Assembly: GCA_017435255.1 (NCBI GenBank)
Contig: JAFSFI010000001.1
Span: 40,055-104,054, forward strand
DNA length: 64,000 bases
Source of the DNA: Bacilli bacterium
GTDB taxonomy: Bacteria; Bacillota_I; Bacilli_A; RF39; UBA660
Reading direction: 5' to 3'
The translations under genes and the position numbers were made by a program. The notes under the pieces are model-generated. The model worked only from the letters and a program-made list of their open reading frames with translations. It was not told the origin of the DNA and ran no database searches. Within the stretch, counting starts at the first letter, position 1. Each line of letters begins with the position of its first letter. Below, in pieces: positions 60,862-64,000 of this stretch.

Positions 60862-61260
60862 TTATAAAAAATTGTTTTCTACTTCTGCTGTTTGGAAATT
60901 AGTATCGTTGTAATTAGTTAACACAACATAAAGACCGATTATTGCAACAGCAAGAGATAAATAAGAGGCGCCAATTTGTAATTTTAGCGAAGAGGTATCT
61001 TGATTGGTTATTTCAGCCAAATTATAACTTTGATAGTTTAAATATAATGAGTAGAAGACTACAAATATAAAAATTAATTTAGTAAGAAGAGCTAAATTTT
61101 GGGAATCATTGTCATTTAAAAAACCATCTTTCCCGTTAGCTTTTTCTTTTTGATCTAAAATAATAATTATTCCTAAAATAATTCCTACAATAGATAAAAT
61201 ACTATTTAATAATTGTCCATCTATTATATGGTTTTTAATATTTTTAAGTTCATTATTCAT
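60862..61260 (-). CDS. Small three-TM membrane protein, unknown function
   Basis: Three hydrophobic helices. ATG at 61260 preferred over 61302, but no clear RBS. Confidence 0.65.
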   Translation of the reverse strand: MNNELKNIKNHIIDGQLLNSILSIVGIILGIIIILDQKEKANGKDGFLNDNDSQNLALLTKLIFIFVVFYSLYLNYQSYNLAEITNQDTSSLKLQIGASYLSLAVAIIGLYVVLTNYNDTNFQTAEVENNFL

Positions 61261-61366
61261 ATAAAAATATATGTATTTAAAATTGGTTTTTAACCGAAAC
61301 AATATAAATTTATATTGATATTCTTGATTTTTTTATATATTTGATTTAAAATACAAGTAACTTCTA

Positions 61367-61555
61367 TGTAAGAAGAGTAGTTATAATTGTTTTTTTAGAG
61401 AAAGTATGGTTGGTGAAAATACTTATAATATTTATAATGAAGACACTTACACTAGTTAGAAGCGTATATCTGCGTTAAGGATTTTAAAGCATATTAATTA
61501 TGGAATTAAGGTGGCACCGCGATATTTTATCGCCCTTATAGGTGACGCCTTTTTA
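61367..61555 (+). ncRNA. T-box riboswitch for the hisS-aspS operon, probably Asp specifier (GAC)
   Basis: AAGAGTA, AGAGAA, GGTGAAA, GAAGACAC (GAC 61442-44; CAC 61444-46 is the alternative), T-box AAGGTGGCACCGCG at 61508-61521. Confidence 0.9.
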
Positions 61556-61570
61556 TTTTAGGAGGGTAAC

Positions 61571-62101
61571 ATGAATTATTTTAAACCAAAAACAAAGTAT
61601 TATATTGTCGATATTTTATCAAAAGGCAATGAAGAGTTAGAATTTTATGGAACAAATATTTATGAATATGTAAAAGAAACTTTTCCTGTTTTATATGATT
61701 TAGAACAAGAAAGACAAAATCTTTTGCGTATGGGTATAAAACAAAATAGTGAGGATTATAGGCAACATGTTAAATTGATGCACTTTGCATTGCGATATTT
61801 AAATTTACCTCGTTATCTATTAGCAAGTGGTGATAATGATATATTTGCAATTGAACCAGTTACTGGAAATAAGATTGAAACCATGGATAAAGATGTATAT
61901 ACTCTAGAAGATAGACGAGTAAGTGATGTTAATTTAGAAAACTATTATGTTTCTAATTATGAAGAAAAAGCAAGAAACTTCTTTGAACCTACACTTGAAA
62001 CTCAAAGAAGAGCAAAATTAAGTATAGAACATTTAGCGATGATAAAAGTAAAGCAAGATATTTATAATAGAAAAAGTGTAAGAATATTAAGGAAAGGGTG
62101 A
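61571..62101 (+). CDS. Hypothetical soluble protein (orphan) between the T-box and hisS
   Basis: RBS AGGAGGG; stop overlaps the hisS start (GTGA). Confidence 0.8.
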   Translation: MNYFKPKTKYYIVDILSKGNEELEFYGTNIYEYVKETFPVLYDLEQERQNLLRMGIKQNSEDYRQHVKLMHFALRYLNLPRYLLASGDNDIFAIEPVTGNKIETMDKDVYTLEDRRVSDVNLENYYVSNYEEKARNFFEPTLETQRRAKLSIEHLAMIKVKQDIYNRKSVRILRKG

Positions 62102-63630
62102 AAAAAATGATAATTAAACCAAAAGGATGCCATGATATATATGGTATAGAAGGGAAAAAATGGCAGTATGTTAACAAAGTTATTGATTCGTTAATGGAAA
62201 AATACAATTATGAATTTATTCGTACTCCAATATTTGAATCGAGTGAAGTGTTTCATAGAGGAATGGGTAACACTACTGATGTAGTTACTAAAGAAACATA
62301 TGATTTTACAGATAGAGGAGATCGTAAAATGACTTTACGTCCAGAAGGTACTGCGGGTATTGTTAGAAGCTATATAGAGAATAAAATGTATGGGAATATG
62401 CCTAATCCTGTAAAATTATATTACAACGGAACTATGTATCGATATGAGCGCCCTCAATCAGGAAGAGATAGAGAACTTACTCAATTTGGTATTGAATTAT
62501 TAGGTAGTGATGATCCATATAGTGATTCAGAAGTAATATCAGTAGCGGTGAATCTATATAAAATGTTAGGACTAAGAGAAATTAAAGTTAAGATTAATTC
62601 GTTGGGAGATAATGAGTCTAGAAATAATTATAGGGAAGCGTTAAAAGATTATTTCCGCCCATATTTAAGCGAATTGTGCCCTGATTGTAAAGAAAGATTT
62701 GAAAAAAATCCTTTACGAATCTTGGATTGTAAAGTAGACAAAGATAATGAAATATTAAAGAATGCTCCAATTACTCTTGATTATTTAAATGAAGAGAGTA
62801 AAGAAAGATTCGATAAAGTTAGAGAATATTTAGAGGCGTTAGAAGTAGATTACGAAATAGATCCTAAGTTAGTAAGAGGACTTGATTACTATAACCACAC
62901 AGTATTTGAAATCGAAGCTCATGTAGAAGGATTTGGCTCAAATAATGTACTAGGTGCAGGGGGAAGATATAATGGTCTTGTTGAGCTGTTGGGAGGACCA
63001 TCTACACCAGGTGTTGGTTTTGCTTGTGGTATAGGTAGACTTATAATGGCTCTTGATCTAGAAAATATTAAATTACCAATCAAAGAAGATATAGAAGTAT
63101 TTGTTATGTATGTATCTGATACAGAGAAGAATTATGCAGCTACTTTAGTACAAAGCCTTAGAATGAGCGGATTTAGAGTAGAAACAGAATATACTGGAAG
63201 AAGTCTAAAAGCGCAATTCAAACAAGCAGATAGATTAGGTGCTAAATATTTAATTATCTTAAATGATGAAGACTTAAGACGTAATGAATTAAAAATTAAA
63301 AATAATAAGACTAAAGAAGAAGTAACTATAGGACTTGATTATTTACTATACTATCTGGATGAAGTTTTATTAGAAGATGAAATAGAATATAAGGAGGAAG
63401 AATATATGGAAAGATGTACTTGTGGAGATGAATGCAACTGTACTGAAGAAAAACACTGCGGTTGTATGGGAGAACACAACTGCAATTGTGGTGAACATTG
63501 TGAATGCACTCATGAAGATAATTGTGGATGCTTAGACGGTTGTGATTGCGATGATGATTGTTGCTGTGGACATAATGAACACGAATGTCATTGTGGAGAA
63601 GATTGTAAATGCCATCATGAAGGAGAGTAA
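62098..63630 (+). CDS. hisS: Histidyl-tRNA synthetase with C-terminal metallothionein-like extension
   Basis: TPIFES, LRPEGTA, RYERPQSGR.RE, LVRGLDYYN, GGRYNGL, KAQFKQAD; then a 74-aa Cys/His-rich tail. Confidence 0.97.
   Translation: MKKMIIKPKGCHDIYGIEGKKWQYVNKVIDSLMEKYNYEFIRTPIFESSEVFHRGMGNTTDVVTKETYDFTDRGDRKMTLRPEGTAGIVRSYIENKMYGNMPNPVKLYYNGTMYRYERPQSGRDRELTQFGIELLGSDDPYSDSEVISVAVNLYKMLGLREIKVKINSLGDNESRNNYREALKDYFRPYLSELCPDCKERFEKNPLRILDCKVDKDNEILKNAPITLDYLNEESKERFDKVREYLEALEVDYEIDPKLVRGLDYYNHTVFEIEAHVEGFGSNNVLGAGGRYNGLVELLGGPSTPGVGFACGIGRLIMALDLENIKLPIKEDIEVFVMYVSDTEKNYAATLVQSLRMSGFRVETEYTGRSLKAQFKQADRLGAKYLIILNDEDLRRNELKIKNNKTKEEVTIGLDYLLYYLDEVLLEDEIEYKEEEYMERCTCGDECNCTEEKHCGCMGEHNCNCGEHCECTHEDNCGCLDGCDCDDDCCCGHNEHECHCGEDCKCHHEGE
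63406..63630 (+). CDS. Nested in-frame metallothionein-like ORF with its own RBS
   Basis: AAGGAGG at 63391-63397, ATG at 63406; 74 aa with 21 Cys and 9 His. Confidence 0.6.
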   Translation: MERCTCGDECNCTEEKHCGCMGEHNCNCGEHCECTHEDNCGCLDGCDCDDDCCCGHNEHECHCGEDCKCHHEGE

Positions 63631-63635
63631 TATAA

Positions 63636-64000
63636 ATGAAAAAATATAACAATATAGAATTTAACATAAATAATGTAGGGGATGAAGTTGAATTATATGG
63701 TTGGGTTGCTAAAAAAAGAAATTTAGGTGGACTAATATTTATAGATTTAAGAGATAGAAGCGGTATTATTCAACTTGCTTTAAGACCTGAAAACAAATGT
63801 TATGAATTGGCTGAATCTTTAAGAAATGAATATGTAATTAAAGTAATTGGGAGAATCGTAGAAAGAGAAAGCAAAAATTTAAATATACCAACAGGTGAAA
63901 TTGAAGTAGATGTAGAACAATTAGAATTGATAAATACAAGTGCAGATTTGCCGTTTACAATATCAGAAGATACTACAGCACTTGAAGATACTAGACTAAA
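63636..64000 (+). CDS. aspS: Aspartyl-tRNA synthetase (5' part; runs off the window)
   Basis: MKKYNN..GWVAKKRNLGGLIFIDLRDRSGIIQL, LRNEYVI, PTGEIEV; RBS AAGGAG. Confidence 0.95.
   Translation, partial: MKKYNNIEFNINNVGDEVELYGWVAKKRNLGGLIFIDLRDRSGIIQLALRPENKCYELAESLRNEYVIKVIGRIVERESKNLNIPTGEIEVDVEQLELINTSADLPFTISEDTTALEDTRL

Follow-up and report, generated by a model that had tools for sequence, protein, structure and literature searches.

To our knowledge, bacterial aminoacyl-tRNA synthetases rarely carry appended domains. Near the end of the window (the whole 64,000 nt stretch of Bacilli DNA analysed here), the gene for histidyl-tRNA synthetase (HisRS) runs through an acidic linker into a segment rich in Cys and His, which raises the question of whether this segment is a true part of the synthetase, a small metal-binding protein that is also made on its own from an internal start, or a separate gene only recently joined to hisS. 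Judged from the comparisons described below, the 74 residues are likely (probability about 0.7) to be a genuine C-terminal part of HisRS that is translated, selectively maintained, disordered, metallothionein-like and probably metal-binding.

The hisS gene, its C-terminal tail and the operon

The hisS gene is complete (62107..63630, + strand, with an alternative GTG start at 62098) and codes for 507 aa, including the tail. Residues 4-408 match the NCBIfam hisS equivalog TIGR00442 (474.2 bits; cut-off, 286.75), and two Pfam domains are recognised, the class II catalytic domain tRNA-synt_His (PF13393; residues 8-310, 62128..63036, + strand, E=2.7e-43) and the anticodon-binding domain HGTP_anticodon (PF03129; residues 330-417, 63094..63357, + strand, E=4.3e-14); the Pfam ProRS-C domain was not detected. 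No second strong HisRS match occurs in the genome (88% complete), and the HisZ model gives the protein 158 bits, below its cut-off of 271.65. By these model matches, the product is the cell's working HisRS and not a HisZ-like paralogue. The identical 507 aa protein is present on four contigs of up to 355,827 bp (NCBI, Logan and ENA), and the fused arrangement of HisRS and tail recurs in more than 100 independent assemblies, so that an assembly artefact or a hidden stop codon is very unlikely.

A conserved helix end, YYLDE, closes at E419 (Y415 and E419 are invariant columns in an alignment of 82 sequences) and is directly followed by the acidic linker VLLEDEIEYKEEEY (residues 420-433; 63364..63405, + strand). 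The tail proper, MERCTCGDECNCTEEKHCGCMGEHNCNCGEHCECTHEDNCGCLDGCDCDDDCCCGHNEHECHCGEDCKCHHEGE (63406..63627, + strand), consists mainly of CxC and CxCGxxCxC elements. The preliminary description had HisRS continuing without a stop into a metallothionein-like domain of 74 aa with 21 Cys and 9 His, and this was confirmed. Cys makes up 28% of the tail, and Phe, Trp and Tyr are absent; across the proteome of this genome Cys and His account for 1.0% and 1.4% of residues, respectively. No hydrophobic or membrane segment is found in the tail. In the AlphaFold2 model the HisRS core is mostly confident and a helix spans residues 410-433, pLDDT drops to under 50 at around residue 428 and beyond, and the tail itself (pLDDT 29-43) is modelled as disordered and is not docked on the core. 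Predicted disorder of this kind is as expected for an apo-metallothionein. Searches of the tail against Pfam, NCBIfam, PHROGs and PDB sequences returned nothing above threshold, the best Pfam match being Metallothio_PEC (PF02068; 13.8 bits against a cut-off of 31.8, E=0.076), and the long tails of relatives have no Pfam matches.

The duplication of a Cys unit that had been noticed at the start of the tail is real. The first copy is MERCTCGDECNCTEEKHCGC (63406..63465, + strand), and the second, MGEHNCNCGEHCECTHEDNCGC (63466..63531, + strand), corresponds to a clean 66 nt gap in the two nearest relatives (P0001 and P0002) and is present in P0022 and P0029. The window thus carries a long variant of the tail, with an extra 22-residue CxCGxxCxC...CGC unit compared to those two relatives. 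Tandem Repeats Finder reported no repeat over 63300-63700, as the two copies are too diverged in DNA, and the duplication is visible only by comparison with relatives.

Upstream, the operon is preceded by a T-box leader (61361..61540, + strand; RF00230, 97.6 bits against a gathering threshold of 93, E=1.8e-21, full model matched), which bears out the T-box control proposed earlier. The specifier codon comes right behind the S-turn GAA, with an A next to it on the 3' side, and reads GAC (Asp) rather than a His codon; a CAC triplet overlaps it (GACAC). The T-box motif could be placed in 62 relatives, and 47 of these share the GAC specifier. An orphan ORF of 176 aa (61571..62101, + strand), transcribed together with hisS but outside the tail, sits between hisS and the T-box terminator; it has no family match in Pfam, NCBIfam and further library searches, and was detected by tblastn only in this genome and as a partial match (47% identity) in L103. 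The distance from the T-box motif to hisS is 585 nt in the window, compared to a median of 52 nt in relatives. Downstream, the last tail codons, GAA GGA GAG (E-G-E), contain the ribosome-binding site of aspS, AAGGAGAG (63620..63627, + strand), 8 nt before the aspS ATG; P0001, P0002 and several relatives of the genus end in the same ...EGE. The 5' part of aspS (63636..64000, + strand; NF001750 aspartate--tRNA ligase, E=3.1e-35) runs off the window. Since aspS starts 5 nt past the hisS stop codon, translational coupling of the two genes is likely.

Distribution and evolution of the tails

Across the roughly 80 family relatives compared, HisRS always carries a fused, acidic Cys/His tail, 21-132 residues long and containing 0-41 Cys, and a fused tail was found in every genome of the same genus that was examined. 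At least four Cys follow YYLDE in 68 of 81 family tails, while seven close relatives among the 81 have acidic/His tails with no Cys. Pooled over the 81 tails, the composition is 19% Cys, 17.5% Glu, 17% Asp, 11.6% His and 10% Gly, and CxC predominates among the motifs, with 255 occurrences spread over 70 of the 81 tails. A survey of the class, covering 131 species genomes from 21 families, scored HisRS proteins with at least three Cys within their last 40 residues. Forty species genomes (~30%) from eight families qualified, and the cultured Turicibacter is one of them; the tailed protein of T. sanguinis is annotated simply as histidine--tRNA ligase. The styles differ between groups: CxC elements in the family of the window, CCGGHGH repeats in Turicibacter, and in family f16 a fixed four-Cys knuckle, CxxCx4-5CxxC, seen in eight of nine genomes. 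The tails of f16 and f20 rely on Cys alone, His being rare or absent in them. On the HisRS tree, the Cys-tail state has to change at least 18 times. The function of the Cys tail is dispensable, because seven of the 81 close relatives lack Cys and many families of the class lack a tail, which counts against the metal-binding reading. Tails from ruminant-derived genomes tend to be longer, a difference that is not significant (Mann-Whitney p=0.06; the host could not be classified for many records).

Within the 90%-identity cluster of the window HisRS, protein lengths range from 463 to 507 aa, and turnover of tail length is rapid while the chemistry is kept. Fifteen Cys codons are shared with P0001 and P0002; they show five and four synonymous changes, respectively, and no non-synonymous ones, whereas the other ~36 tail codons have 10 and 11 non-synonymous changes (Fisher p=0.02). 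Because Cys codons change only synonymously while their neighbours change, selection acts at the protein level and is purifying on Cys. The best explanation of these patterns is that the family of the window, a group of gut Bacilli with reduced genomes, has had tails for a long time, and that several other families, including that of Turicibacter, gained or retained comparable ones.

Outside HisRS, similar sequences are scarce. A search with the tail alone of 5.8 billion proteins gave no match and no free-standing homologue, a region-restricted search found only two close HisRS proteins, and among 1.84 billion representatives there was just one HisRS fragment, together with two unrelated proteins sharing the 17-residue unit CxCGDxCxC[TDN]xE[ND]NCGC. 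One of these (P0005) is a small membrane protein encoded directly 3' of feoB, and the other carries the unit at the N-terminus of the product of a gene in the HemX position of a hemCD-X-hemY operon. By gene neighbourhood, both sit in metal-related contexts; with E-values of 1.7e-5 and 5e-4, these are weak matches that convergence could explain. In the genome of the window, feoAB lies on another contig and is not followed by a small Cys-rich ORF. Among the 855 ORFs of at least 150 aa in this genome, one other has a strongly Cys/His-rich C-terminus, a CDF metal exporter (PF01545) ending in ...ECHDECCQ...HHHHHH, and no other real Cys-rich stretches were found. The top Cys-rich match, an (SCC)n repeat on C12, was rejected as the wrong frame of a collagen-like GxT repeat.

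The possible internal start site and the age of the fusion

The linker codons AAG GAG G form an SD-like heptamer, AAGGAGG (63391..63397, + strand), 8 nt before an in-frame ATG (Met434; 63406..63408, + strand). It is present just as the preliminary description gave it, including the minority G-ending codons (AAG accounts for 19% of Lys codons and GAG for 17% of Glu codons in this genome). From this it had been proposed that one locus makes both the fusion and a free metallothionein of 74 aa, as ribosomes would also start at 63391-63408. The heptamer, spacing and start codon are optimal for a Firmicute, and of 122 AAGGAGG sites counted across the genome, 93 lie ahead of real starts. The heptamer is also kept in L103, where GGAGG-N8-ATG persists, and L232 retains the arrangement with GGAGG in place of the heptamer despite different encoded residues; SD and ATG are likewise kept in P0029 and P0031, and both have been lost together in L102/P0001.

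Conservation among relatives that keep the domain is, however, lacking. Of the 11 tail variants compared (the 90%-identity cluster of the window plus P0002), four have a Met before the first Cys, and none of the long-tailed lineages does. SD and ATG before the first Cys occur together in three of 81 family sequences scanned (the window, L025 and L041; L103 was outside that scan). Nor does the site exceed chance, as the 29 AAGGAGG sites with no productive start and the three internal in-frame ones are together close to the number estimated from base composition, a K/E-rich linker yields AAGGAGG readily, and the exact AAGGAGG-N8-ATG pattern is expected 0.11 times per window and appeared in 11 of 100 shuffles of the window. 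The two protein libraries also hold no free-standing homologue. The SD and ATG are therefore best explained as an incidental, polymorphic feature; since the site varies among the closest relatives and falls within chance expectation, a free peptide is possible but is no conserved feature, and a second product from this locus is unlikely.

The other origin put forward earlier, in which a separate metallothionein gene 3' of hisS was recently joined to it by loss of the hisS stop codon, has in its favour only that an SD and ATG are seen at the junction, and is contradicted by the comparison of hisS 3' ends. The tail is fused in essentially all of the ~80 family relatives, in the same genus and in seven further families, and no separate ORF was seen between hisS and aspS in any relative examined. 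Tail lengths form a graded series (~20 to 132 aa), homology of both the linker and the terminal residues extends through the genus, and no stand-alone homologue was found.

Possible functions and comparison with known systems

The tail, made as a fusion to HisRS, probably binds soft divalent metal ions in thiolate/imidazole clusters, with Zn(II) the most likely metal and Fe(II), Ni, Cd or Cu(I) also possible, and evolves through gain and loss of short CxC-based units. As to its physiological role, we infer that a protein-borne metal buffer or reservoir, carried on a constitutively needed enzyme, is the most likely, if somewhat short of even odds, because capacity (the number of Cys) varies freely while the chemistry is conserved. 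Metal binding does not account for the choice of HisRS over any other protein as the carrier. The histidine pool is itself a major ligand of Zn and Ni. A broader and more tentative proposal, drawn from sequence comparison, is that the HisRS of many gut Bacilli (the family of the window, Turicibacter and at least six others) have repeatedly acquired chemically different metal-binding tails, whether CxC units, CCGGHGH repeats, CxxC knuckles or His runs, so coupling histidine charging to metal homeostasis. If so, HisRS might buffer metal in the cytosol, taking the place of the histidine pool or shielding it, or else translation might come under metal- or redox-gated control via HisRS. Published feeding trials, in which Turicibacter abundance responds to dietary zinc in inconsistent directions, offer no support.

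Ranked second among the roles, and rather unlikely, is a metal- or redox-dependent modulator of HisRS. By analogy with Hsp33, which has a C-terminal Zn-Cys domain, metal occupancy or oxidation of a zinc-thiolate tail might change HisRS activity, dimerisation or tRNA binding, so that in a strict anaerobe histidine charging would respond to metal or oxygen stress. The tail lies directly after the anticodon-binding domain and is strongly anionic, and could thus compete with tRNA; the f16 knuckle resembles one defined site more than bulk capacity, and the repeated appearance of tails specifically on HisRS suggests an enzyme-linked role. The variation of Cys number and length in the family of the window, even among proteins that are more than 90% identical, fits a precise switch poorly, however, and AlphaFold2 places no part of the tail on the core. 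An iron site, with Fe(II) bound by the Cys units or an Fe-S cluster built on them, is improbable. It would suit the FeoB and haem settings of the sole non-HisRS carriers of the unit, and Cys-ligated Fe-S clusters are reported for other aminoacyl-tRNA synthetases, e.g., Thermotoga TrpRS, but those two matches are weak and possibly convergent, and hypervariable tails dominated by CxC and rich in His and Asp/Glu typify metallothionein-type binders of Zn, Cd or Cu, not Fe-S motifs.

More improbable still is that the tail has no metal function at all, being either a neutral or just tolerated low-complexity product of replication slippage or a codon-level sensor, in which ribosomes would be slowed at runs of His, Asp and Cys codons under a shortage of charged tRNA, tuning the coupled aspS. 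Its rapid indel turnover, repeat structure and disorder would fit the former, and the latter could draw on a tail that is rich in His and Asp, in an operon encoding HisRS and AspRS, and that ends in the ribosome-binding site of aspS. Against this, purifying selection keeps Cys while neighbouring residues change, Cys reaches 19% in the tails of more than 80 species, compared to a background of 1%, and stalling within hisS would cut HisRS just when more is needed. Because the f16 and f20 tails are Cys-only, His codons are not the common denominator, and attenuation-like sensing of His codons was rejected, given the Cys-only tails of several families and a T-box that reads Asp. Zinc-stimulated Ap4A synthesis by synthetases came up separately as an explanation of the tail; this is speculation, with general references only.

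No description of a metallothionein-like extension on HisRS was found in family libraries or the searchable literature, and a link between HisRS and metal binding is apparently undescribed. The tail is no curiosity of one metagenome bin, being carried by ~30% of the sampled species of the class, and since cultured Turicibacter sanguinis is among the carriers, bench experiments can address the question directly. Should the tails prove to bind metal, they would offer a new place to look for the buffering of zinc or iron by gut bacteria with reduced genomes, which vie with their host for metals, and a natural example of metal-binding capacity rapidly tuned by unit gain and loss; if they regulate HisRS, metal or redox state would be linked to translation.

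Several known systems invite comparison. P0005, like the FeoB-associated Cys-rich membrane proteins (PF12669), is encoded next to feoB, and its two CSCxDxCxCTPENNCGC copies represent the unit also seen in HisRS tails; it differs from those tails in having an N-terminal membrane helix, its match to PF12669 is weak (E=0.044), and the likeness, which may be convergent, does not extend beyond the Cys unit. The HisRS tail has neither the membrane helix nor the feoB neighbour that mark PF12669 proteins. Among the synthetases, archaeal-type ProRS has a Zn-binding module C-terminal to the HGTP anticodon-binding domain shared by class IIa enzymes. The zinc-dependent T1/T2 pair of ThrRS in Anabaena illustrates that zinc supply can control synthetase function (PMC9437257). 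These are folded, sequence-conserved domains or catalytic/structural sites, unlike the repetitive and hypervariable appendage of HisRS.

A further comparison is with the Cys/His-rich terminal tails of metal-handling proteins (CDF exporters, the plant P1B-ATPases HMA4/HMA2, HypB, SlyD, UreE and Hpn), which are likewise appended and disordered, conserved in composition and variable in sequence, and which supply extra metal sites, as is predicted for the HisRS tail. One study attributes nanomolar Zn affinity to di-Cys motifs in the C-terminal extension of plant HMA4 (PMC6255694). The carriers in those cases are themselves transporters or metallochaperones, whereas HisRS has no known role in metal trafficking. 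Differences from the metallothioneins (SmtA/BmtA and plant Ec/PEC, PF02068) are that the tail is the C-terminus of a synthetase, always fused and never a low-molecular-weight stand-alone protein, is much more acidic, scores far below the PF02068 cut-off, and is hypervariable in length even within one species-level cluster. In other respects it resembles them: Cys content is very high, in CxC, CxxC, CC and CxCGxxCxC motifs, His residues are interspersed, as they are in Ec-1 and SmtA, aromatic residues are absent, disorder is predicted for the metal-free state, and the element CNCGEHCEC is similar to CGCGEHCGC of wheat Ec-1.

A Cys/His-rich extension of HisRS

The hisS gene (62107–63630, + strand) is the sole strong HisRS match in the genome (1.0 Mb, 15 contigs, 88% complete) and specifies a protein of 507 aa. 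Residues 4–408 match the TIGR00442 hisS equivalog (474 bits; cut-off 286.75), with Pfam catalytic and anticodon-binding domains at 8–310 and 330–417, respectively. The frame is stop-free past the invariant YYLDE helix end (E419), and continues through an acidic linker, VLLEDEIEYKEEEY, into a C-terminal tail (residues 434–507; 63406–63627) of 74 residues that contains 21 Cys and 9 His but lacks aromatic residues. This composition is far above chance, since Cys and His make up 1.0% and 1.4% of the proteome. The preliminary description of the sequence (HisRS frame through an acidic linker, 74 aa tail, AAGGAGG-N8-ATG) was correct in every element. The same 507 aa protein is found on four contigs, up to 355,827 bp long, from three source collections, the HisRS-tail frame is continuous in every relative examined, and between the window and its closest relatives the tail Cys codons show synonymous changes only, the signature of a translated sequence; these observations speak against an assembly artefact. 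In the AlphaFold2 model, the HisRS core is mostly of high confidence and residues 428–507 have pLDDT values of 29–43, as would be expected of a metal-free, metallothionein-like chain.

In each of the eight further genomes of the genus, HisRS has an acidic Cys/His tail of 20–45 residues at its C-terminus (e.g. ...EDECDCDECHCEGEDKCHHHKGE), and scanning a single genome for each species retrieved 80 further loci, in bins from human, rabbit, ruminant and chicken gut, including Clostridium sp. CAG:710, CAG:451 and Candidatus Faecimonas. The scan loci, the window and the closely related metagenome contig L102 together gave 81 sequences with complete C-termini, in which the stretch following YYLDE is 21–132 residues long (median 36) and carries 0–41 Cys (median 6), with at least four Cys in 68 sequences. 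The pooled composition is 19% C, 17.5% E, 17% D, 11.6% H and 10% G. CxC predominates, occurring 255 times across 70 tails, while CxxC is rare, and one bin (L032) has about 20 CSCGDD repeats. It had been suggested that a separate gene was recently fused by loss of the hisS stop codon. This is contradicted by the fused tail in all relatives examined, and the Cys-rich part does not form an ORF of its own in any of the 81 family sequences, so by this distribution the tail is old and widespread and not a recent fusion.

A class-wide survey of 131 species genomes in 21 families used simple thresholds of ≥3 Cys or ≥4 His within the last 40 HisRS residues. The Cys threshold was reached in 40 genomes from 8 families, and short His-rich ends were seen in 6 additional genomes. 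Tail style depends on the family. In f16, the HisRS of 8 of 9 genomes ends in a four-Cys motif, CxxCx4-5CxxC, and family f15, the main genus of which is Turicibacter (T. sanguinis, T. faecis) by exact-sequence look-up, has the style GCCGGHGHG..ECCGGHGHG..CGCQH. The Turicibacter proteins (e.g. WP_195931941.1; genomes L130, L132, L133 and L142) are annotated merely as histidine--tRNA ligase; their repeat number differs between strains, giving lengths of 454–484 aa inside one 90% cluster. When Cys tails are scored as present or absent on a tree built from 217 HisRS cores, at least 18 changes of state are required.

Unit turnover and the candidate internal start

The window tail carries two short CxC-based units (63406–63465 and 63466–63531). 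The two closest relatives from the region search, P0001 (on contig L102) and P0002 (on contig L103), are both 484 aa proteins, 92% and 90% identical to the window HisRS, and align with it base for base save for a clean 66 nt gap over MGEHNCNCGEHCECTHEDNCGC. The window's 90%-identity cluster has 14 members, 463–507 aa long except for the N-terminally truncated P0033 (409 aa), with tails of about 35 to 79 residues. Members have one or two units (P0022 and P0029 also have two) on near-identical cores, indicating that strains are still gaining and losing units. In the comparisons with P0001 and P0002, the 15 common Cys codons have 5 and 4 synonymous changes, respectively, and no replacements, while the other 36 or so tail codons have 10 and 11 replacements (Fisher p = 0.02 for each relative). 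Selection is visible on the tail Cys codons, and comparison across genomes shows the tail to be a translated, selectively maintained and hypervariable Cys/His/acidic extension of HisRS in many species.

The preliminary description also proposed that a free metallothionein is made from an internal ribosome-binding site. The site exists, as AAGGAGG (63391–63397, + strand) lies 8 nt ahead of an in-frame ATG (63406), but it is unconserved. Its arrangement is that of a textbook Firmicute start, and a real ORF begins behind 93 of the 122 AAGGAGG heptamers in the genome. GGAGG-N8-ATG is retained in L103, and also, despite different encoded residues, in the metagenome scaffold L232. In L102, however, the Shine-Dalgarno sequence is gone (AAAGAAGA) and the ATG has become ATA, and a Met precedes the first Cys in just 4 of the 11 tail variants that were compared from the closest relatives. 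An SD-like sequence with a start at that place occurs in three of the 81 family sequences (window, L025 and L041; L103 falls outside that scan), and in none of the long-tailed lineages. The heptamer arises readily from a Lys/Glu-rich linker; non-start copies number 29 in the genome plus three internal in-frame ones, against a chance estimate of about 36 from base composition, and 11 of 100 window shuffles contained the exact SD-spacing-ATG pattern. Internal initiation in the window strain is physically plausible, though we lean against it, and by these comparisons the internal site is neither conserved nor necessary for the system. The L232 scaffold (616 bp; 1–616) consists of a gyrB/parE-like 3' end, the last ~120 hisS codons including the tail, and then aspS, and represents an assembly chimera or else a truncated copy of hisS; P0029 has its tail in the full-length form.

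The hisS-aspS operon and its T-box

A single transcription unit (61361–64000, + strand) comprises a T-box leader (61361–61540; Rfam RF00230, 97.6 bits, gathering threshold 93), an orphan ORF of 176 aa (61571–62101) that follows the T-box terminator and reaches up to the hisS start, then hisS and aspS. On the opposite strand, a 146 aa ORF with hydrophobic segments (60862–61302) lies between alaS and the T-box. The start of aspS (63636, + strand) is 5 nt past the hisS stop, and its RBS, AAGGAGAG (within 63620–63638, + strand), is encoded by the last three hisS sense codons (E-G-E), which is probably why the ...HHEGE end is conserved in close relatives while the rest of the tail varies. The orphan ORF had no match in Pfam, NCBIfam or PHROG, and was found only in the window genome and the P0002 contig (47% identity over 55 residues); in other relatives the distance from T-box to hisS is about 52 nt. 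Inside this ORF (61894–62002, + strand), a weak resemblance to the ribosomal S15 leader, below the model's threshold (RF00114; 24.6 versus 39.5 bits, E = 0.009), is probably due to chance.

T-box control of the locus, as earlier proposed, agrees with the leader found ahead of hisS; the specifier loop (...AGUA.../...GAA GAC A...), however, presents GAC (Asp). GAC is the specifier in 47 of 62 relatives with a located T-box motif, and an overlapping CAC (His), read as GACAC in the window, is present in just 18 of the 62. The operon is thus most likely controlled via tRNA-Asp rather than tRNA-His, judging from the specifier codons.

Putative role and related metal-binding systems

A search with the tail alone gave no match among 5.8 billion proteins of 41–130 aa, and a complete pass through 1.84 billion representatives yielded three. 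One of these, P0003, is a fragment from the C-terminus of HisRS. P0005 (L229:760–1080), encoded immediately 3' of feoB, is 106 aa long, has a membrane helix at its N-terminus and carries two CSCxDxCxCTPENNCGC units. P0004 (L231:5001–6659), from a genome outside the window's group, is a 552 aa protein in the HemX position of a hemC-hemD-X-hemY operon, with several CxCGDSCDCxEENNCGC repeats at its N-terminus. The 17-residue unit CxCGDxCxC[TDN]xE[ND]NCGC thus appears in three unrelated, metal-related contexts, although with E values of 1.7e-5 and 5e-4 these matches are weak, and convergence may account for them.

The tail would bind soft divalent metals in thiolate/imidazole clusters, and by analogy with 20-Cys metallothioneins its 21 Cys and 9 His could hold roughly 6–8 ions. 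We favor a role in metal buffering or storage, carried on an enzyme that the cell needs constitutively, since the number of Cys is free to vary while the chemistry stays conserved. The main rival, a metal- or redox-dependent switch on HisRS, would better suit the fixed four-Cys knuckle of family f16. The genome carries feoAB, one Fur-family regulator, two P-type ATPases and two CDF exporters. Of the 855 ORFs that are 150 aa or longer, just one besides hisS has a C-terminus strongly rich in Cys and His. It encodes one of the CDF exporters (Cation_efflux; contig C7, from 197191 onward, + strand), which ends ...INEECHDECCQINESKTKKHHHHHH and provides a positive control, internal to the genome, for the uses of such tails. 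Elsewhere in the genome, a predicted multi-pass membrane protein (C14:76897–77529, − strand) has an N-terminal TPTCGCCSCCCCCC, in which 9 of 12 residues are Cys. Contig C12 ends within a collagen-like gene (C12:24490–24789; MNNNCFEDIE...GPTGPTGPAGPAGGATGATGAT...); an (SCC)n reading there is spurious, being the other strand of the collagen-like GCAACAGGA repeats.

Full-text literature searches turned up no relevant account of a tRNA synthetase, HisRS or another, with a Cys-rich or metallothionein-like extension, and we consider the recurrence of chemically different tails on one enzyme, HisRS, to be the most interesting aspect. The tail is not a member of the curated metallothionein families (best match PF02068, 13.8 versus 31.8 bits). 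It is putatively like metallothioneins in its mode of action, yet is not a free small protein, and in the same putative action it resembles the metal-binding tails of CDF and HMA-type transporters.
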